Assembly: GCA_043823065.1 (NCBI GenBank)
Contig: JBDRBB010000008.1
Coordinates: 159,355 to 223,354 of the forward strand
Direction: 5' to 3'
Length of the DNA stretch: 64,000 nucleotides
Source of the DNA: Pseudomonadota bacterium
GTDB lineage: Bacteria; UBA10199; 2-02-FULL-44-16; DYJF01
The notes beneath the pieces were generated by a model. That model had not been told where the DNA came from. It saw only the letters and a list, made by a program, of their open reading frames with translations, and did no database searches. A program made the position numbers and the translations under genes. Below are positions 25,080 through 57,103 of this stretch, piece by piece; the first letter of the stretch is position 1, and the number at the start of each line of letters is the position of its first letter.

Positions 25080-25472
25080 ATGATGAGACTTACCAAACAC
25101 ACTCAATTACCAACATTTGAAGTCAATCAAATCTACGGTATTTCAGTGGTTAATGTTTCAGGAGAATTATCTCGCTATAATATGCGTTCATTAGAACAGG
25201 TTTTTAATTCATTTTTAGAGCGTGGTCAGTTAAGTATTGTTTTAAATTTTTCTGGTTTGACTCATATTGATTACCGCTTGGTTAGGTGTTTGGCAGATCA
25301 TATCGTTTGTTTTCAATGCGAAGGCGGTGATATCAAAATTGCCAATGCCAGTAGCTATATCCAACAAATCCTAAAAGTAATGGGTATGGAAGAAGACCAA
25401 ATTTCTTGCTCAATAGAAGATGCAGTAATGAGCTATTTTGTCGAGCAACCAGAAGGTGGAGTATTGCAGTGA
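25080..25472 (+). CDS. STAS-domain protein (anti-sigma-factor-antagonist fold, lacks the phosphorylatable Ser) inserted between mraZ and rsmH
   Basis: 130 aa. The STAS-like pattern (…IVLNFSGLTHIDYRLV…) has Y-R in place of the DSSG Ser. GAGGGGGA RBS. Its stop TGA overlaps the rsmH ATG (tgATG at 25470-25474). Confidence 0.55.
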   Translation: MMRLTKHTQLPTFEVNQIYGISVVNVSGELSRYNMRSLEQVFNSFLERGQLSIVLNFSGLTHIDYRLVRCLADHIVCFQCEGGDIKIANASSYIQQILKVMGMEEDQISCSIEDAVMSYFVEQPEGGVLQ

Positions 25473-28738: not shown

Positions 28739-30198
28739 AACTAAGTGAGTTGACAAAAAATATTGATATATTGAATTCATTTGGCGAGCTGGACCGCGAA
28801 ATTCGCGAGCTAACCTATCACAGCGGTCAGGTGCAGCCACATGGTATTTTTGTGGCGGTAAAAGGACAGCAAGCTGATGGGCATAAATTTATTGCTCAGG
28901 CTATTCAGGCCGGGGCAAGTGTTGTTGTTACTGAAAAGAAGGTTCAAGTTTCAGAAGAGGTTACTAATTTAGTAGTCGCTGATACCAGAAAAACCCTGGC
29001 CCAGCTTTCAGCTAATTTTTTTGGCGACCCCTCCAGACATATTGCTTTGATTGGAGTAACTGGCACTAATGGCAAGACCACTACCACCTATTTGTTGGAA
29101 GCTATATTTGAGCAGGCAAATTTTAATCCTGGTGTGATTGGCACAATTGAACATCGTTTTGGCAAAAATCGTCTGCCAGCCAAAAACACCACTCCTGAGT
29201 CTTATGATTTGCAAAAACTTTTGCGTCAAATGCTGGATCAGCAGATTAATGTTTGTGTGATGGAAGTTTCTTCGCATGCCTTAATGATGGAAAGAGTAAC
29301 AGGTTGTCATTTTGACGGCGCTATTTTTACCAATCTCACTCCAGAACATTTGGATTTTCACCAGGAAATGGATGCTTATTTTTCAGCTAAAACCAAATTG
29401 TTTCAGGAAAATTTAGCGCAGAGTAAAAAGAAAAATACATTTGCAGCAATTAATATTGATGATCCATATGGCCAAAGATTGCTTGGCCAGAGCAACTATA
29501 AAATTATTAAATATGCTTTAACCAATCAGGCAGATGTTAGGGCAACTGAAATTAAAGCAGGTGCTCAAGGTATTAGTCTAAAAATTGCCACTCCTAATGG
29601 TAGCTTTTCATGTGTTTCAAAGCTGCTGGGTAAATTTAATGTGCATAATATTTTGGCAGCAACTTCCACTGCTATTGGTTTGGGTCTGCCTTTGGAAATT
29701 ATTGGACAAGGGCTGGCTAAAGTTAGAGCTATCCCTGGTCGGTTTGAACAAGTTTTGAATGAAAAAGGAATTTTGGTTTTTGTGGATTATGCGCACACCC
29801 CAGATGCCTTAAGAAATGTTTTAATGCAGGCAAAAGAGTTGCTGACTGGAAATTCAAAACTTATCTGTGTGTTTGGTTGCGGCGGAGATCGCGATAAACA
29901 AAAACGTCCAGCAATGGGAGCGATTGCCTCTAAATATGCAGATCGAGTTTTGATCACCAATGATAATCCCAGAACTGAAGATCCAGCCATGATTATCAAA
30001 GATATTATAGTAGGAGTAAAGGGCGCTAACTTCGAGATTATCGAGGCGCGTGAACAAGCAATAAAAGCAGCGGTAGAAATGGCTAAAGAAGGAGATGTAA
30101 TTGTGGTGGCTGGTAAAGGACATGAAGATTATCAAATTATTGGCACTACTCGTCGTCACTTTGATGACCGGGAAGTTTTACGGGAATATTTGCAATGA
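28735..30198 (+). CDS. murE: UDP-N-acetylmuramoyl-L-alanyl-D-glutamate--2,6-diaminopimelate ligase (mDAP-type, DNPR motif)
   Basis: GTNGKTTTT P-loop and a DNPR motif (DNPRTEDP). ATGA overlap with ftsI. Confidence 0.85.
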   Translation: MKLSELTKNIDILNSFGELDREIRELTYHSGQVQPHGIFVAVKGQQADGHKFIAQAIQAGASVVVTEKKVQVSEEVTNLVVADTRKTLAQLSANFFGDPSRHIALIGVTGTNGKTTTTYLLEAIFEQANFNPGVIGTIEHRFGKNRLPAKNTTPESYDLQKLLRQMLDQQINVCVMEVSSHALMMERVTGCHFDGAIFTNLTPEHLDFHQEMDAYFSAKTKLFQENLAQSKKKNTFAAINIDDPYGQRLLGQSNYKIIKYALTNQADVRATEIKAGAQGISLKIATPNGSFSCVSKLLGKFNVHNILAATSTAIGLGLPLEIIGQGLAKVRAIPGRFEQVLNEKGILVFVDYAHTPDALRNVLMQAKELLTGNSKLICVFGCGGDRDKQKRPAMGAIASKYADRVLITNDNPRTEDPAMIIKDIIVGVKGANFEIIEAREQAIKAAVEMAKEGDVIVVAGKGHEDYQIIGTTRRHFDDREVLREYLQ

Positions 30199-31616
30199 AT
30201 TTAACTTTACAAGACATAATTGAAACCACGCAAGGCAGGTTTCTAAAAAAGGCAGCTTGTCATTCCCGCGAAAGCGGGAATCTAGAGGGTATAAGTATAG
30301 ATTCGCGCACTATAAAGCCTAGTGATTTGTTTATGGCGATCAAGGGTGCGCATTTTGACGGCAATGATTTTATTGCGGCAGTCATTAATAAGGGTGTGAA
30401 AGCAGTAGTGATTGATAGAGAGCTTGGTGCTGATCAATTAGCTAATATTGCTGAAAACGTCAGCGTGATCAAAGTGAATGAAGGGACAACTGCTTTAGGC
30501 GATTTAGCTAAATGGTGGCGAGCCAAATTTAAGGCAACTTGTGTGGCGATTACCGGCAGCAATGGCAAGACAACTACCAGAGAAATGGTGGCAGCAATTG
30601 CTTCAGCCAAAGGAAAAGTTTTAAAAACCGAAGGCAATTTCAATAATTTAATTGGTTTGCCTTTAACTGTTTTTAAGTGGACCAGAGAAGATCAGGTGGC
30701 GGTTTTGGAATTGGGTATGAATGCTAAAGGCGAAATCAAACGCTTAACTGAAATTTGTCAGCCTGATATTGGGGTGGTCACTAACGTGACTGCCGCTCAT
30801 TTGGAAAAATTAAATACTGTAGAAGGCGTGGCTAAAGCTAAAGCAGAACTTTTTGAACAAATGAGCGGCCAGGGTATTGCTATTATCAATGATGAAGATC
30901 CCTGGGTAAAGAAAATGGGAAAACAATATTCTGGACGCACCATAAGCTTTGGTATGCAAAATAGCAGCGATGTGCAGTTTAGACATTCAGAATGCACTGA
31001 TTTTGAAAATGTTGATCTTACTTTGGCAGTTATGGGCGAAGAAAGAAAAATTAGACTGCCTATACCTGGCACGCACAATGTGATGAATGCCTTGGCTGCA
31101 GTTGCGGTAGGTGTGGCTTTGGAAATTAAATTAGATGAAATATTGGAACGCTTGGTTTGTTTTACTCCAGTGGCTATGCGTTTTGAAAGAGTGCAGTTGG
31201 CTAATGGCGTTTGTTTAATCAATGATTCTTATAATGCCAATCCATTGTCTATGAAAGCTGCTTTTAGAACCGTGAGTTCAGTTAAAAGAGCGGGTAGGTT
31301 TATCGCAGTTTTGGGTGATATGTTGGAATTAGGTGCTCAGTCAGAAAATCTGCATAAAGAAGTAGGCCAGGATCTAGTGGAATTTGGTGTTAAAAAACTT
31401 TTTACTTTTGGAGAACGCGCTAAACAAATTGCCCAAGGAGCTTTAGAAAAAGGCTTGAGTGCCAAAGCAATTCAACAAACACAAGATATTAAAGAGTTAG
31501 AAAAATTAGTTGATGCTGAAATTCAGCCAGGAGATGTTTTGTTAGTTAAAGGTTCCAGGGGAATGCATTTGGAAAGATTAGTGGAATATTTAAAACATAA
31601 TATAGGAATAGGCTAA
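30195..31616 (+). CDS. murF: UDP-N-acetylmuramoyl-tripeptide--D-alanyl-D-alanine ligase, carrying an in-frame 24-bp hairpin-repeat insertion
   Basis: GSNGKTTT P-loop, conserved position. The N-terminal domain contains the extra residues ACHSRESGNL encoded by the repeat at 30258-30283. Confidence 0.85.
   Translation: MNLTLQDIIETTQGRFLKKAACHSRESGNLEGISIDSRTIKPSDLFMAIKGAHFDGNDFIAAVINKGVKAVVIDRELGADQLANIAENVSVIKVNEGTTALGDLAKWWRAKFKATCVAITGSNGKTTTREMVAAIASAKGKVLKTEGNFNNLIGLPLTVFKWTREDQVAVLELGMNAKGEIKRLTEICQPDIGVVTNVTAAHLEKLNTVEGVAKAKAELFEQMSGQGIAIINDEDPWVKKMGKQYSGRTISFGMQNSSDVQFRHSECTDFENVDLTLAVMGEERKIRLPIPGTHNVMNALAAVAVGVALEIKLDEILERLVCFTPVAMRFERVQLANGVCLINDSYNANPLSMKAAFRTVSSVKRAGRFIAVLGDMLELGAQSENLHKEVGQDLVEFGVKKLFTFGERAKQIAQGALEKGLSAKAIQQTQDIKELEKLVDAEIQPGDVLLVKGSRGMHLERLVEYLKHNIGIG
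30258..30283. repeat. GNRA-tetraloop hairpin element GTCATTCCCGCGAAAGCGGGAATC (copy 1, in-frame within murF)
   Basis: Perfect 7-bp stem TTCCCGC/GCGGGAA around a GAAA loop. Near-identical copies occur at 33388 and 40533. Confidence 0.75.
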
Positions 31617-32698: not shown

Positions 32699-34096
32699 AT
32701 GGAAGATCTAAAGAATAAAAAAGTACTCATTATTGGTTTGGCGCGGTCTGGCCTGGCAGCAGCTCGTTTTGCTGCTGAGCGCGGAGCCAAAGTTATTGTT
32801 TCAGACAGCAAGCCAGAGAAACAGCTTAAAGAACAAGTGCAATTCTTGAAAGATTTGAACTTAGAATTTTCTTTAGGAAAAAATGATCAAAGCTTAATGA
32901 CCAAGGCAGATTTAATAGTGGCTAGCCCAGGTGTACCCTTGAATTTAGCTGGGCTAGATCAAGCCAGAGCTAAGGGTATTCCCATAGTTTCTGAAATGGA
33001 ATTGGCGCTAAATGAAATCAATAAACCTATTATAGCTATAACAGGCACTAATGGAAAAACTACGACGACTTCTTTGATTGGCCATGTCTTGCACCAGTCA
33101 GGATTAAAGGTTTGTGTTGCGGGCAATATTGGTCAGGCCTTAAGTGGTATGGTAAAAGAAGCAAATGCAGCTGATTGGGTGGTTTTAGAGGTGAGTAGTT
33201 TTCAATTAGAAACCACGCCATCTTTGGCTCCGCAAATAGCCATTTTGCTAAATGTGACAGCAGATCATTTAGATCGTCATGGAAATTTGGAAAAATATCT
33301 TCAGGCCAAGTTGAAAATTTTTGCCAATCTTAAACCAAATGGATTTGGTGTTTATAATGCCGAGATTGCCTGTCAGCCCTCAGTTGCTTGTCATTCCCGC
33401 GAAAGCGGGGATCCAACTCTAGATCTCTGCCTACGCAGGGATGACAAACATAGAAACTATATTGCTTTTAACGCTAAAAATGATTTCCAGCAAGGAAACT
33501 TGATAACCAGGATAAAAGAATATGGCGAAAAATCCTGGAGCTTGGCTGAAGTAAATTTATTTGGTGCGCATAATTATGAGAATTTATTGGCAGCTATTAT
33601 CGCCTCCCAACTGGTCGGTCTGGAAGACCAAACCATAGCGCAGGGTTTAAAAACTTTTAAGGGTTTGCCGCATCGTTTGGAACTAGTTGGTGAGCAAAAT
33701 GGGGTGCGCTATTTTAATGATTCCAAAGGTACTAATGTCGGAGCCACAATTGCTGCTCTAGAAAATTTTCAAAATGTAATCTTGATTGCTGGTGGACAGG
33801 GAAAAGGCGGAGATTTTCTGGATTTAGCAGCAGTAATTTCCCAGCGAGTAAAGAAAATGATTTTGATTGGCGAAACCAAACAGCAAATAGCGGAACAGCT
33901 TGGCAAGTTAACTGATACGGTATTTGCCGATAACCTGGAACAAGCAGTTAAATTGGCGCATCATTCAGCAGGAAATAGCGATGTAGTCTTGCTTTCTCCA
34001 GCCTGCGCCAGCTTTGATATGTTCAAGGATTATGTAGAACGGGGAGATGTTTTTAAAAAAGAGGTAAGTAAATATTTGACTAAAGATTGTCATTGA
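32699..34096 (+). CDS. murD: UDP-N-acetylmuramoylalanine--D-glutamate ligase, carrying an in-frame 60-bp composite hairpin-repeat insertion
   Basis: GTNGKTTTT P-loop. The insert CHSRESGDPTLDLCLRRDDK is encoded by 33388-33447. Confidence 0.85.
   Translation: MEDLKNKKVLIIGLARSGLAAARFAAERGAKVIVSDSKPEKQLKEQVQFLKDLNLEFSLGKNDQSLMTKADLIVASPGVPLNLAGLDQARAKGIPIVSEMELALNEINKPIIAITGTNGKTTTTSLIGHVLHQSGLKVCVAGNIGQALSGMVKEANAADWVVLEVSSFQLETTPSLAPQIAILLNVTADHLDRHGNLEKYLQAKLKIFANLKPNGFGVYNAEIACQPSVACHSRESGDPTLDLCLRRDDKHRNYIAFNAKNDFQQGNLITRIKEYGEKSWSLAEVNLFGAHNYENLLAAIIASQLVGLEDQTIAQGLKTFKGLPHRLELVGEQNGVRYFNDSKGTNVGATIAALENFQNVILIAGGQGKGGDFLDLAAVISQRVKKMILIGETKQQIAEQLGKLTDTVFADNLEQAVKLAHHSAGNSDVVLLSPACASFDMFKDYVERGDVFKKEVSKYLTKDCH
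33388..33447. repeat. 60-bp composite element with inverted termini TTGTCAT…ATGACAA (copy 2 of the hairpin family plus a degenerate inverted partner), in-frame within murD
   Basis: TTGTCATTCCCGCGAAAGCGGGGATC…GATCTCTGCCTACGCAGGGATGACAA. The length is a multiple of 3. Confidence 0.7.
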
Positions 34097-37784: not shown

Positions 37785-38728
37785 ATGACGCTAACTGGAA
37801 AACAACAAGAGAAGTTACAGGAAATAGCCCAAGATTGTGTGCTTTTTGAAGAAAGGCTGGCCAAATATTCAACCATTCAAATTGGCGGGCTGGTTGATGC
37901 TTTAGTAACGCCTGCCAATTTGGATATGCTCAAACAAGTTTTGAATTGGGCCAAGCAGGAAAGGATTCCCTATTTGTTTTTAGGAGCAGCTAGCAATACC
38001 TTAATTCGCGATGGTGGTTTTAGGGGAATTATTCTGCGCCTGAAAAAAGGTTTTGATCAAATAGAAGTGATTAATCAGGCTGGGGAGGATGTTTTTATCA
38101 GCGTTGGCGCGGGCCTTTTTACTGCTACTTTGGTGCAGTTTGCTGCGGAAAATGGTTTTGCTGGCCTGGAATTTTTAGCCGGAATTCCAGGTTGTGTGGG
38201 TGGTAATGTGCTGACCAATGCTGGTACTAATGAATCTTGCGTTGCTGATGTGTTAGATGAAATTTCTGTGGTAGATCGTTCGGAAAAAGAAATGAGCCTC
38301 AAACGCAAGGCCTTGGATTTTTCTTATCGCAACTTGAAGCTGGCCAGATCTACCGCAGTTATTAAAGCAGTTTTTAGATTAAAAAAAACAGATCCAGAGC
38401 AGGTGCGACACGCTGTGGAAAAGTTAATTGAAAAACGCAAACAAAGTCAGCCCTGGGGTAAATTAAGTTTAGGCTGTGTATTTAAAAACCCGATTGCTGG
38501 TAAAGGTAAAAAGAATTTAAGCGCGGCAAGTTAATTGATGAGTTGGGTTTAAAACAGGTGCGTGTTGGCCAAGCCAGGGTTTCAGAAAAACATGCTAATT
38601 TTATTATTAATGAAGGTGGGGCCACAGCGCGCGATGTTGAGGTTTTAATGGGGTTGATCAAGGAAAAAGTCAAACAGCGTTTTGGCTTAAATTTAGAACC
38701 AGAGATAGGGATAATAGGAGAGATCTAG
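37785..38728 (+). CDS. murB: UDP-N-acetylenolpyruvoylglucosamine reductase, reading frame broken by an apparent -1 frameshift (ORFs 37785..38534 and 38543..38728)
   Basis: First ORF has the MurB FAD-binding domain. The downstream -1 frame reads …RGKLIDELGLKQVRVGQARVSEKHANFIINEG…, the conserved MurB C-terminus. Both frames are open across 38510-38534. Confidence 0.7.
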
Positions 38729-38794: not shown

Positions 38795-39733
38795 ATGCTT
38801 AATAAGTGGAAAGATAAAAAAATTGCAGTGCTAATGGGTGGTCAAACAAAAGAGCGGGAGATCTCGTTAAAAACAGGCGCAGCCATTAGCAAGGCCTTGA
38901 ATAAATTAGGTTACCAAGTCGTAGATATTGATGTTGGTAACGATTTGGTAGAAAGATTGAGGAAAGAAAATATCCAGGTGGCGTTTATTGCTTTACATGG
39001 CAAGTTTGGTGAAGATGGTTGCGTGCAAGGGTTACTTGAAATGTTACGCATTCCTTATACCGGCACTGGTGTTATTGGCTCAGCAATTGGCATGGATAAG
39101 ATTATTTGTGACATGGTGGCCAAACAGCTGGATATTCGTCTGCCTAGGGAACAGTTTTTTTATTTTAATCATGAACCTAAAGAGACAATTGTTAAAAAAG
39201 TTGAAATTGATTTGCCTTTAGTGGTGAAGCCAGCCAGGGAAGGCTCAACCATTAATCTTAGTATTGTGCGCCAGCCCGAAGAACTTGAGCCGGCGATTAT
39301 CACAGCAGCCAAATCAGATAATAAAATTATTATTCAGGAATATATTGCCGGCAAAGAAGTTACTGTTGGTTTGCTTAACGGCCAAGCCCTGCCAGTATTG
39401 GAAATCGTGCCTAAAAGCGGTTTTTACGATTATACTTCAAAATACACTAAAGGCCTGACTGAATATATTGTGCCAGCGCGCATTTCGGAAAAATGCGCAG
39501 AAAAGATTCAAAAATGGAGTGCTGATATATTTAAGGCCTTGGAGGGCTCAGGCGTGGCGCGTTGCGATTATATTATAGATAAAAATGATCAGGCCTATTT
39601 TTTAGAGATTAACACTATTCCAGGCATGACCGAATTGTCATTGGTGCCTAAAGCAGCTGCCCATATAGGTATCAGCTTTGAACAATTAGTGGAGCAAATA
39701 TTAGACGCAGCAGCGCTAAAGGTGAATATATAA
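38795..39733 (+). CDS. ddl: D-alanine--D-alanine ligase
   Basis: ATP-grasp fold. N-terminal motif (HG.FGEDG) and C-terminal E-N (FLEINTIPGMT) motif. Confidence 0.85.
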   Translation: MLNKWKDKKIAVLMGGQTKEREISLKTGAAISKALNKLGYQVVDIDVGNDLVERLRKENIQVAFIALHGKFGEDGCVQGLLEMLRIPYTGTGVIGSAIGMDKIICDMVAKQLDIRLPREQFFYFNHEPKETIVKKVEIDLPLVVKPAREGSTINLSIVRQPEELEPAIITAAKSDNKIIIQEYIAGKEVTVGLLNGQALPVLEIVPKSGFYDYTSKYTKGLTEYIVPARISEKCAEKIQKWSADIFKALEGSGVARCDYIIDKNDQAYFLEINTIPGMTELSLVPKAAAHIGISFEQLVEQILDAAALKVNI

Positions 39734-40569
39734 TGAGGGGATTTCTTAAAACACAGAATGTAAAGAAAAAGGGGATCGTTGCTAGGCATTTTAGGGCGGT
39801 GGAGCGAATTCTGTTTTCTCTAGCCGTGGTCTTTGGAGGGCTAGCCCTGCTTTATGGTTTATATTTAGTAATTGTGTTTGGTCCATTTTTTAATGTGGAA
39901 AAAGTAATTGTGGCTGGGGAATTAACTCATTTAAATCAAAGCCAGGTGGAGACATTGGCCAAAGTTAGTCCAGGGCAAAAGCTGTTTGGCGTAAACGTGC
40001 AAAAAATGCATTTGAACTTAAAAAAACATCCTTGGGTCAAGCAGGCTACAGTTAGAAGACGGTTGCCAGATACGGTTTGGATTTATATTGAAGAATATCA
40101 GCCAGTGGCCATTTTCATTAATAAGAACAAGCCATATTTTGTGGACGAACAAGGTATTGCGTTTAAGCAAATAGAAGCAGGAGAATCTAAAAATTTCGAA
40201 ATTATTTCAGGATTGAGAAATTTTGAAAATCAGCAAGAATTACAGGCAGAGCTTAAACAAAGTTTGGAACTTATTAGTTTATATAAAAAATCTAAGTTTA
40301 GCCAGATTTTGGGGATTGCAGAACTGCATTATGCCAAGCCATATGGATTTTCTATTATTACAGAAAAAGGCCCGATAGAAATATTTTTGGGAAATAGTTT
40401 TTCCCAGGAAAAATTTCAGATTCTGGATCATTATCCAGGGGTGATTGAACGAGCTCAGGAAAAAATTAGATATATTTTTGCCAATAATGAGAATAGGATT
40501 GCTGTGGGTTATGAGGATGTTTCCCAAGCGGTGTCATTCTCGCGAAAGCGGGAATCCAGTGCGTTATAA
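39733..40569 (+). CDS. ftsQ: Cell division protein FtsQ/DivIB (POTRA domain); the C-terminal 12 aa are encoded by a hairpin repeat
   Basis: Bitopic protein with an N-terminal TM helix, then POTRA-like region. Conserved position before ftsA. The tail VSFSRKRESSAL is encoded by the hairpin-family copy at 40533-40556. Confidence 0.65.
   Translation: MRGFLKTQNVKKKGIVARHFRAVERILFSLAVVFGGLALLYGLYLVIVFGPFFNVEKVIVAGELTHLNQSQVETLAKVSPGQKLFGVNVQKMHLNLKKHPWVKQATVRRRLPDTVWIYIEEYQPVAIFINKNKPYFVDEQGIAFKQIEAGESKNFEIISGLRNFENQQELQAELKQSLELISLYKKSKFSQILGIAELHYAKPYGFSIITEKGPIEIFLGNSFSQEKFQILDHYPGVIERAQEKIRYIFANNENRIAVGYEDVSQAVSFSRKRESSAL
40533..40556. repeat. Hairpin element copy 3 (GTCATTCTCGCGAAAGCGGGAATC, one stem mismatch) forming the 3' end of ftsQ
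   Basis: Same element as 30258 and 33388, here in a different reading frame. The ftsQ stop codon follows immediately. Confidence 0.7.
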
Positions 40570-55758: not shown

Positions 55759-56370
55759 ATGAAACAAAAACCAGATAATCTGAAGCTTCTAGAGTCCTTT
55801 AGTCTGGACTTAAAAGGAGTTTTTACTTTAGCTGATCTAAGGGGAATATATCCAGATAAGCATACTCTTACTTTTTATAGAAGGATTAAGAGCTTAGAAA
55901 AAGATGGAATTTTGACTAGAGTGTTAAAGAGTATTTATGTTTCTAAATCTTTTGATATTGATGTTTTGAGTCAAAAAATTTGTCCAAATTCTTATATAAG
56001 TTTTGAAAATGTTTTGGCCAAGGAGTTGGTTATTGGCACAGTGCCAAAAAATTCAGTTCGTGCCGCAAAAAAGGGTAAAAAAAGAGAATATAAGTTTGAT
56101 GCTAAAAAAATTATACATTTAGGTCTTGCTACCCATCTTTTTTTTGGTTTTAAAACTAGACAAGGTGTTAATTATGCTACCAAAGAAAAAGCATTCTTAG
56201 ATACGCTTTATTTTTATAACAAAGGGGTTAGATTTTATTTTGATATTTTTTCTGATATTAATCTAGAACAATTAAACATCAAGCTGATACATAAATATCT
56301 TAAAAAATATAAAAATCCCAAGTTTATTAATTTTGTAAAAAATTATTTAAATGAACATTCCTTTTCCTAA
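55759..56370 (+). CDS. AbiEi-like antitoxin / transcriptional regulator (type IV TA)
   Basis: 203 aa with an N-terminal wHTH-like region (LADLRGIYPDKHTLTFYRRIKSLEKDGILTRV). It overlaps the downstream nucleotidyltransferase gene by 20 nt. The region is AT-rich. Confidence 0.45.
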   Translation: MKQKPDNLKLLESFSLDLKGVFTLADLRGIYPDKHTLTFYRRIKSLEKDGILTRVLKSIYVSKSFDIDVLSQKICPNSYISFENVLAKELVIGTVPKNSVRAAKKGKKREYKFDAKKIIHLGLATHLFFGFKTRQGVNYATKEKAFLDTLYFYNKGVRFYFDIFSDINLEQLNIKLIHKYLKKYKNPKFINFVKNYLNEHSFS

Positions 56371-57103
56371 AAATTTGTCGCAAGATTCATTGTTTGCTTG
56401 GCTCATGCATAGAATTTCCCTGGAGTTTCGTGAGCATGCTATTTTAAAAGGTGGCATGTCTTTTAGATTGGTTAATTCTCCCAGAAGCACTAATGATCTA
56501 GATTATGTTTTTGTGCCATTTAAATCAAAAAAGGAAATTGCTCCTGTTTTAGAAAAAATTGTTTCAGAAATTCCCAGCGCCAAAATAACTAGATCCATGC
56601 ATTCCACTGCTTTGCGCCTAAATATTTCTGTAGAAGATGTTAATGTTCAACTTGAAGCTGATATTGCCATGAATTGTAAATCAGCACCCATGTCCACCAG
56701 TGCTTTAGCCAGCAAGGTTGATCAACTAAGTCAGGTGATTAGGATTATGAGTTTTGATGTGGCCTTGTCTCATAAGTTGGCAGCTTGGAATGAAAGAAGG
56801 TTATTAAGAGATTTATATGATGTTTATTATTTATATAAAGTGGTTGGAGTTGTTCCTGATAAAGACACTCTTTTGTCTAGGTTGGATCAAATTAATTCAC
56901 GCATTCCCAGCCTTAAAAACAGGAAGAAAATGAAAATGTCTGAGTTCTTGGCTGAATTAAAAAAAGCAGCAGATGAGATAACAGAGCAAAAGCTGGAAGA
57001 AGAGTTGGCGCCGCTTTTAAATCTTAATGAATTGCCGGGATTGGCCATTAAGCTTCGAACAAGCATAAATGAGTTGGTTGCATATATTCTTCGAGCTGCT
57101 TGA
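56351..57103 (+). CDS. AbiEii/AbiGii-family nucleotidyltransferase toxin (DUF1814-like)
   Basis: N-terminal motif ILKGGMSFRL…RSTNDLDYVF matches the pol-beta-type hG[GS]…[DE]h[DE] NTase signature of AbiEii. The C-terminal tail YILRAA is encoded by a repeat. Confidence 0.6.
   Translation: MNIPFPKNLSQDSLFAWLMHRISLEFREHAILKGGMSFRLVNSPRSTNDLDYVFVPFKSKKEIAPVLEKIVSEIPSAKITRSMHSTALRLNISVEDVNVQLEADIAMNCKSAPMSTSALASKVDQLSQVIRIMSFDVALSHKLAAWNERRLLRDLYDVYYLYKVVGVVPDKDTLLSRLDQINSRIPSLKNRKKMKMSEFLAELKKAADEITEQKLEEELAPLLNLNELPGLAIKLRTSINELVAYILRAA

Follow-up and report, generated by a model that had tools for sequence, protein, structure and literature searches.

The 64-kb window analyzed in this study (64,000 nucleotides of contig JBDRBB010000008.1, assembly GCA_043823065.1) contains a dcw cluster of cell-wall and division genes, in which murD (32699 to 34096, + strand) carries a 60-bp palindromic element at 33388 to 33447. 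The gene was assigned as an open reading frame (ORF) whose homologs have Mur ligase domains. Its 465-amino acid product, a UDP-N-acetylmuramoyl-L-alanine--D-glutamate ligase, is a 100% match to an NCBI protein encoded on a contig of 320,553 bp in a metagenome-assembled genome (MAG) labelled "Pseudomonadota bacterium", and has matches to MurD structures in the Protein Data Bank up to E 2e-79. A first-pass annotation had described the 60-bp segment as a composite element with 7-bp inverted termini, longer than the other copies nearby, and had likened it to a miniature inverted-repeat transposable element (MITE). The results presented below show that the element is a compact head-to-head (HH) heterodimer of two repetitive extragenic palindromic (REP) sequences of the CGTC-1 type, located in frame at a position specific to this lineage.

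The segment from 33388 to 33447 reads TTGTCAT TCCCGCGAAAGCGGGGATCCAACTCTAGATCTCTGCCTACGCAGGG ATGACAA and is 60 bp, or exactly 20 codons, in length; in the murD frame, codons 231 to 250 (33389 to 33448) are translated as CHSRESGDPTLDLCLRRDDK. It is composed of two inverted 24-nt hairpin units, each with a tetranucleotide tag, an 8-bp stem containing one mismatch, and a 4-nt loop. Unit A with its tail occupies positions 33389 to 33415 of the + strand, the hairpin part ending at 33412. It consists of the tag TGTC (33389 to 33392), the first stem strand ATTCCCGC (33393 to 33400), the loop GAAA (33401 to 33404), the second stem strand GCGGGGAT (33405 to 33412), which contains one T·G mismatch, and the tail CCA (33413 to 33415). 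Unit B with its tail is inverted and occupies positions 33420 to 33446 of the − strand, with its hairpin part at 33423 to 33446. Read on the − strand, it is TGTC ATCCCTGC GTAG GCAGAGAT CTA; the single mismatch in its stem is C·A on that strand, corresponding to a U·G wobble on the mRNA strand. The two tails are separated by a 4-nt spacer, ACTC (33416 to 33419), giving a stem-to-stem distance of 10 nt. Because the tags lie outside and the stems and loops differ between the units, the arrangement is that of an HH heterodimer. A repeat search of the element returned inverted arms of 29 nt that are 76% complementary, with 8 nt between them. The 7-bp inverted termini that had been noted, TTGTCAT and ATGACAA, are indeed present; they are not separate transposase-binding repeats, however, but consist of the TGTC tag, the AT stem bases, and one flanking base (T). 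The insert is an outlier in base composition, with a GC-content of 53% vs. 41% for murD and ~38–40% for the window around the element. Two of its six reading frames lack stop codons, and the murD frame is one of those two.

The general pattern of the units in the window is TGTC + ATTCCCGC + GAAA + GCGGGAAT + CCA. When a 26-mer was used for searching with up to three mismatches allowed, three matches were found in the window vs. none in 100 shuffles. A search by structural definition (tag, AT, 8-bp stem, 4–5 nt loop, at most one mismatch) found four units where 0.1 were expected. These two results exclude a chance resemblance. Unit A is an exact match to the pan-bacterial 23-mer TCATTCCCGCGAAAGCGGGRATC used in the scan described below and is one base off the 26-nt consensus. 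Unit B corresponds to a known variant unit, ATTCCTGC-GTAG-GCAGGAAT, which was also seen in one of the genomic loci found in that scan (L055) and in 76 metagenome dimers. There was no second doublet in the 64-kb window; the remaining units were single.

The family to which these units belong was defined by Di Nocera, De Gregorio and Rocco (2013, BMC Genomics 14:522; PMC3733652) as CGTC-tagged REPs. In their definition the tag is an unpaired terminal tetranucleotide, CGTC, with TGTC and CCTC as accepted variants; the stem of families 1 and 2 is 8 bp and nearly always opens with complementary A-T residues; the loop of CGTC-1 is 4 nt; and the short unpaired tail fits CCA. The units occur mainly as HH dimers with their tags outside, both homo- and heterodimers being known, and CGTC-1 is the same element as neisserial dRS3 and as the Rickettsia palindromic element RPE-6 of Rickettsia conorii (PMC3733652). 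All four units in the window begin with TGTC. Their stems are 8 bp and start with AT, the murF unit having a perfect stem (ATTCCCGC/GCGGGAAT) and the other three one mismatch each. The loops are GAAA in three units and GTAG in one, and the tails are CCA (murD unit A and ftsQ) or CTA (murF and murD unit B). An origin as a CRISPR repeat, an integron attC site, or a tRNA-derived element was considered and dropped, the unit fitting the CGTC-1 definition completely. An Rfam scan of the whole window at the gathering threshold found no known RNA family.

In an alignment of MurD with 25 homologs the segment was confined to the window protein: all 25 homologs have a gap of 17 residues opposite CHSRESGDPTLDLCLRR. 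Because the gap is 17 residues and the element is 20 codons, the boundaries of the insert are uncertain by ~3 codons. The reading frame and the homology are continuous on both sides of the element, all 93 of the 93 invariant columns of the family are retained, including the P-loop GTNGKTT, and the length of the loop region varies among the homologs. The first-pass description of a 20-codon composite within murD was correct. In the dcw clusters of five close relatives (L121 to L125) no units were found, only two-mismatch matches at the level expected by chance. An AlphaFold2 model built from the MurD alignment had a mean predicted local distance difference test (pLDDT) score of 86.3 and TM scores of 0.77–0.83 against Escherichia coli MurD structures. 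Residues 227 to 244 scored below 50; this low-confidence segment lies between one strand (216 to 220) and another (253 to 257) of the central domain, and the model thus places the insert in a loop, as the first-pass annotation had anticipated. Judging from the model and the alignment, the in-frame insert leaves the MurD fold and its catalytic motifs intact and occupies a predicted loop.

The other copies in the window are shorter than that in murD, as had been stated; both are single units. One is located in murF (30195 to 31616) at 30258 to 30284 on the + strand. It has the perfect stem and the CTA tail given above, is read in frame close to the MurF N-terminus, spans nine codons, and encodes AACHSRESGNLE; at this site MurF is a net five residues longer than in the five relatives. 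The second is at 40532 to 40558 (+ strand), at the 3′ end of ftsQ (39733 to 40569), where it is read in another frame as VSFSRKRESSAL up to the stop codon. The last ~12 codons of FtsQ (40532 to 40569) are supplied by the unit, and the relatives end soon after a conserved VGY motif without such a tail. It seems that a REP normally located just after the stop codon was absorbed into the ftsQ ORF. The window thus has four units at three sites, all inside 10.3 kb and all in coding sequence, and at all three sites the tag comes first on the sense strand. A consensus single unit is open in five of its six frames, and such units can therefore survive inside genes.

Single GTAG REPs have been put forward as decayed doublets (summarized in PMC3733652), and the first-pass annotation had suggested the same for the single 24-bp copies here. 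That suggestion gained no support, since no partner remnants above the shuffled background were found within 150 bp of the murF and ftsQ units. The best match, at 30349 to 30367 in murF, was rejected as a remnant; it is the conserved MurF motif GAHFDGND, and because that motif is present in relatives without repeats the match is due to chance. Both this motif and another in MurF, IDSR (30297 to 30308), resemble DSRFRGND, the translation of the reverse strand of the REP, at the DNA and the peptide level. Judged by their presence in repeat-free relatives, these likenesses are coincidental, but they could mislead repeat finders.

In-frame REP inserts are themselves already known. More than half of the intragenic inserts reported previously are dimers or groups, encoding 20–30 amino acids, and the intragenic dimers in Additional file 3 of that study encode 20–37 amino acids and include CGTC-1 dimers in R. 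conorii MurB and PBP1C (PMC3733652). The same file lists the in-frame peptides CHSRESGDP (R. conorii UvrC), CHSRESGNP, SFPRKRES, VIPAKAGI, and DSRFRGND (PMC3733652). Because these peptides are identical to those found here, the phenomenon has been published down to the level of the peptide. A term search of the published table of intragenic REPs found no Mur ligase or FtsQ entries (PMC3733652). The window units share with CGTC-1 REPs the tag, the 8-bp stem starting with AT, the 4-nt loop, the CCA-like tail, the predominance of the HH arrangement, the occurrence of heterodimers, the in-frame inserts of 8–9 amino acids (single units) or 20–30 amino acids (dimers), and the lack of a flanking transposase. 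They differ in that the host is an uncultured "Pseudomonadota" MAG of ~38% GC, whose MurD relatives are labelled Deltaproteobacteria or simply bacterium, unlike the mainly alphaproteobacterial hosts published before; in that the murD dimer measures 10 nt from stem to stem vs. the usual 20–100; and in that all of the window copies are coding, whereas the family is normally intergenic. What is new is therefore the host lineage, the host genes (murD, murF, and ftsQ), and the unusual compactness.

Rickettsia palindromic elements, reportedly described by Ogata et al. in Science in 2000, resemble the inserts studied here in being palindromes located in frame in housekeeping protein genes, where a peptide is added at a tolerated site and the protein is not destroyed. 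The peptides encoded by RPE-6 are the same (CHSRESGDP and others). RPE-1, the classic element, is longer (~100–150 bp) and is confined to Rickettsia; the host here is not Rickettsia, and murD, murF, and ftsQ are outside the published table. The murF unit also contains exactly ATTCCCGCGAAAGCGGGAAT, a string found in Neisseria gonorrhoeae as well, which conforms to the dRS3 core (ATTCCC-N8-GGGAAT); murD unit A (GGGGAT) and the ftsQ unit (ATTCTC) are each one substitution away from that core. In Neisseria, dRS3 copies are grouped into mosaic arrays between genes, where a filamentous prophage integrates, whereas nothing like such arrays or prophage integration was seen in the window.

The distribution of the unit was examined by searching for exact copies of the 23-mer in one genome per species, which gave at least 120 stretches (L001 to L120) totalling 860 kb; the counts for these loci given in this and the following paragraphs hold among the matches listed, and host groups were taken from the titles of the records. 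The hosts included Alpha-, Beta-, and Gammaproteobacteria, Desulfobacterota-type "Deltaproteobacteria", Bacteroidetes, Dehalococcoidia, and Anaerolineae. Members of the candidate phyla radiation were Paceibacteria, Parcubacteria, Saccharibacteria, Peribacteria, Falkowbacteria, and Sungiibacteriota, and further hosts were Vampirovibrionales, Terriglobia, Verrucomicrobia, Planctomycetes, Omnitrophota, Nitrospirota, Cloacimonadota, Zixiibacteriota, Armatimonadota, and a Rickettsia endosymbiont. The unit was also found on 113 IMG/VR viral contigs (L126 to L238), and there were matches in Azospirillum, sphingomonad, Cupriavidus, and Neisseria records filed as plasmids, one of them inside ileS. CGTC repeats were known from five phyla in 2013, with hosts that were mainly alphaproteobacterial (PMC3733652); the nearly invariant 23-mer thus occurs in far more phyla than were reported then, and on viral contigs in addition. 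We regard this wider spread of the exact unit as more interesting than the murD case itself.

The 120 loci contained 237 units, with the tag CGTC in 136 and TGTC in 101, the loop GAAA in 161, and the tail CCA in 183 or CTA in 18. By arrangement there were 52 HH dimers with tags outside, 11 tail-to-tail dimers with tags inside, 11 head-to-tail (tandem) dimers, and 105 singles. Hence 52 of the 74 pairs had their tags outside, and doublets with the same TGTCAT...ATGACA ends as the murD element, whose failure to recur would, according to the first-pass annotation, have refuted its interpretation, represent the majority arrangement. The stem-to-stem gaps of the HH dimers were 3–95 nt, mostly 20–45. 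Only 23 of 206 units (11%) were embedded in long open frames, vs. 55% of random positions, so that the family is mainly extragenic and the intragenic copies are a minority. In some cases (L113, L038, and L092), dimers from different organisms had a common spacer and were found in either orientation, an indication that a doublet may be copied together with its spacer.

Full-length copies of the murD type recurred as well. The heterodimer of a GAAA unit with an inverted GTAG-loop unit was found in 76 metagenome stretches, with spacers of 7–30 nt. In two of these (L258 and L293, ~58 nt) it is as compact as the murD copy and could be aligned with the murD element end to end; both lie between genes, immediately 3′ of one that in L258 is rpsG. 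The compact heterodimer of 58–60 bp may be close to the minimal unit of the CGTC REP superfamily. One metagenome, Ga0082212 (L240 to L312), contained more than 40 nearly identical copies of the heterodimer with a conserved 30-nt spacer (for example, L255:8602–8674), and the outer flanks of these copies were conserved too, with TAATATAC before the tag and GAAAGCGG after. The conservation of both spacer and flanks suggests that a family copied as a unit longer than the dimer was amplified recently, or else that insertion strongly favors a particular target.

The flanks of the murD element (...CAGTTGCT and AACATAG...) have no target-site duplication. When the murD element was pooled with the 52 HH dimers, 43 of the 53 had a flank match of 0 nt, which was no better than random controls; target-site duplications, for which the first-pass annotation had proposed a search, were therefore absent at murD and in the other dimers alike. 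Upstream of the tag the only base preference was a weak one for T at −1 (44%), with no clear target motif. A Pfam scan of 40 ORFs of the window found no transposase, insertion sequence (IS), or RAYT gene, and there was none in the dcw genes. The 10 genes bracketed by inverted units in other loci were all housekeeping genes, with no transposase and no REPtron-like arrangement. The missing transposase agrees with the published statement that CGTC REPs have no dedicated transposase (PMC3733652).

A mechanism of spread can be proposed only tentatively and by analogy. The route that we favor, with little confidence, is that the units are transposed in trans through a single-stranded hairpin intermediate, with a cut adjacent to the tag and no duplication of the target. 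In such a scheme a hairpin-specific activity supplied in trans would cleave single-stranded DNA beside the tetranucleotide tag and transfer it, as in the analogous case of GTAG REPs and REPINs with their RAYT (IS200/IS605-like HUH) transposases. The REPINs and RAYT transposases were reportedly described by Bertels and Rainey in 2011 and by Nunvar et al. in 2010; a REPIN is an inverted REP pair that forms one long hairpin and behaves as a replicating unit. The murD element shares with REPINs the two inverted REPs forming one long hairpin and the lack of target-site duplication. It differs in its tag, which is GTAG in REPINs and TGTC or CGTC here. In addition, REPINs are linked to a RAYT gene flanked by REPs, whereas no such gene was found in the window or next to the units in the 120 loci.

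We consider it very probable that a CGTC-1 HH heterodimer REP was inserted into a variable loop of MurD and has been tolerated there as selfish or neutral DNA within an essential gene, just as was reported of Rickettsia palindromic elements and of other REPs found within genes. A doublet, or two units in succession, would have entered the variable loop of the central domain. It would have survived because its length is a multiple of three, because the frame used is one of the two stop-free frames out of six, because the 17–20 encoded residues would lie in a flexible loop, and because the catalytic residues would be left untouched. We infer that the insertion was followed by selection on length, frame, and loop position. 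Several points weigh against this interpretation. The 10-nt stem-to-stem gap in murD lies at the lower end of the family range. The sequence covers just 64 kb of the genome, so that copy number in the host rests on four units at three sites within 10.3 kb. The nearest MurD relatives are only ~55% identical, with no empty-site allele among them, and the insertion event is deduced from a gap in the protein rather than from a comparison of nucleotides. The net gains of 17 amino acids in MurD and five in MurF are smaller than the elements, which are 20 and nine codons, so either the boundaries are ambiguous or some sequence was lost on insertion. The missing homologous alignment columns may account for the low pLDDT of the insert wholly or in part, so that the flexible surface loop is something that we infer. 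Finally, the mechanism of mobilization is an analogy only.

For the murD doublet, folding as RNA gives a single long hairpin of −33.3 kcal/mol (z −6.1), compared with −15.1 kcal/mol as DNA. The stem mismatches at 33407, 33426, and 40536, one per imperfect unit, are all G·U wobbles on the mRNA (+) strand and A·C on the other strand, a pattern compatible with selection on RNA folding that would arise by chance about once in eight cases. An alternative to simple tolerance is therefore that the hairpins in murF, murD, and ftsQ have been co-opted as RNA or single-stranded DNA elements in a long dcw transcript, where they might mark points of transcript processing or stabilization, make ribosomes pause, or bind proteins, and in this way adjust how strongly the cell-wall and division genes are expressed relative to one another. 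The great stability of the murD RNA hairpin, the wobble-compatible mismatches, and the location of all three sites in the dcw operon with the tag first on the sense strand agree with such a role, and the usual position of REPs elsewhere, just 3′ of genes (as in L258 after rpsG, and in PMC3733652), suggests roles at the RNA level. The sites are few, however: their clustering within 10.3 kb has P ~0.07, their common orientation ~0.2 once the constraints of stop codons are counted, which is not significant, and the three wobble-compatible mismatches ~0.125. Moreover, no unit scores as an intrinsic terminator and none is followed by a T-run, and because none of the five relatives has units in its dcw cluster, the operon works without them. 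We therefore regard co-option as unlikely. If it were true, a selfish repeat would be setting the ratios among the proteins of the cell wall and of division, and its translation product would be no more than a harmless loop.

The comparison to a MITE, in the classical sense of a deletion derivative of an IS with 7-bp terminal inverted repeats, mobilized by a DDE transposase and generating target-site duplications, draws on the 60-bp length, the perfect 7-bp inverted ends, and the recurrence of doublets with the same ends elsewhere. Those ends, however, belong to each REP unit, being its tag and first stem bases, and are also present on single units; there was no duplication at murD or at the 52 other dimers, and neither the 40 window ORFs scanned nor the 10 genes between inverted units elsewhere included an IS or transposase gene. 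The part of the first-pass interpretation that stands is that of a dispersed, presumably mobile palindromic family in which the inverted doublet is a recurrent full-length form; with no target-site duplication and no parent IS seen in the window, a classical MITE is not supported, and a MITE origin in that sense is very improbable. We give still less credence to the absence of any insertion, that is, to an ancestral or adaptive MurD loop that resembles the repeat by chance or to an artefact of metagenome assembly. The genome is a MAG, and sequence errors are possible because murB in the same cluster carries a frameshift; the MurD loop region also varies in length among homologs. Nevertheless, unit A is an exact 23-mer and unit B a known variant, with no matches in 100 shuffles, and the same repeat family is present in two nearby genes. 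Had the assembly been joined chimerically at a 24-nt repeat, the frame and homology would not continue on both sides as they do.

With these inserts, MurD, MurF, and FtsQ of an uncultured low-GC lineage join the essential proteins that tolerate REP inserts, and the murD copy identifies a loop of the MurD central domain as permissive. For annotation, segments of 8–20 residues such as CHSRESG(N/D)P, SFPRKRES, VIPAKAGI, DSRFRGND, and CLRRNDK should be treated with caution, as translated REP units and not as functional motifs.

The surrounding dcw genes are murF, mraY, murD, ftsW, murG, murC, murB, ddl, ftsQ, and ftsA. At the head of the cluster, a gene for a STAS-domain protein (25080 to 25472) lies between mraZ and rsmH; the same order is found in four of the relatives (L122 to L125), so that this arrangement is unusual but typical of the lineage. 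The murB gene is split, in the region 38500 to 38545, into two ORFs (37785 to 38534 and 38543 to 38728), its C-terminal part (KRGKLIDELGLKQVRVG...) continuing in another frame after the A-rich sequence GGTAAAGGTAAAAAG. Either the assembly contains a frameshift error at the homopolymer run, or the essential gene truly is frameshifted or a pseudogene. Farther downstream, at 55759 to 57103 and embedded among sugar-modification genes, an AbiEii-type nucleotidyltransferase toxin gene (56351 to 57103) is preceded, with a 20-bp overlap, by an unannotated ORF of 203 amino acids; the two are probably an AbiE toxin-antitoxin pair.

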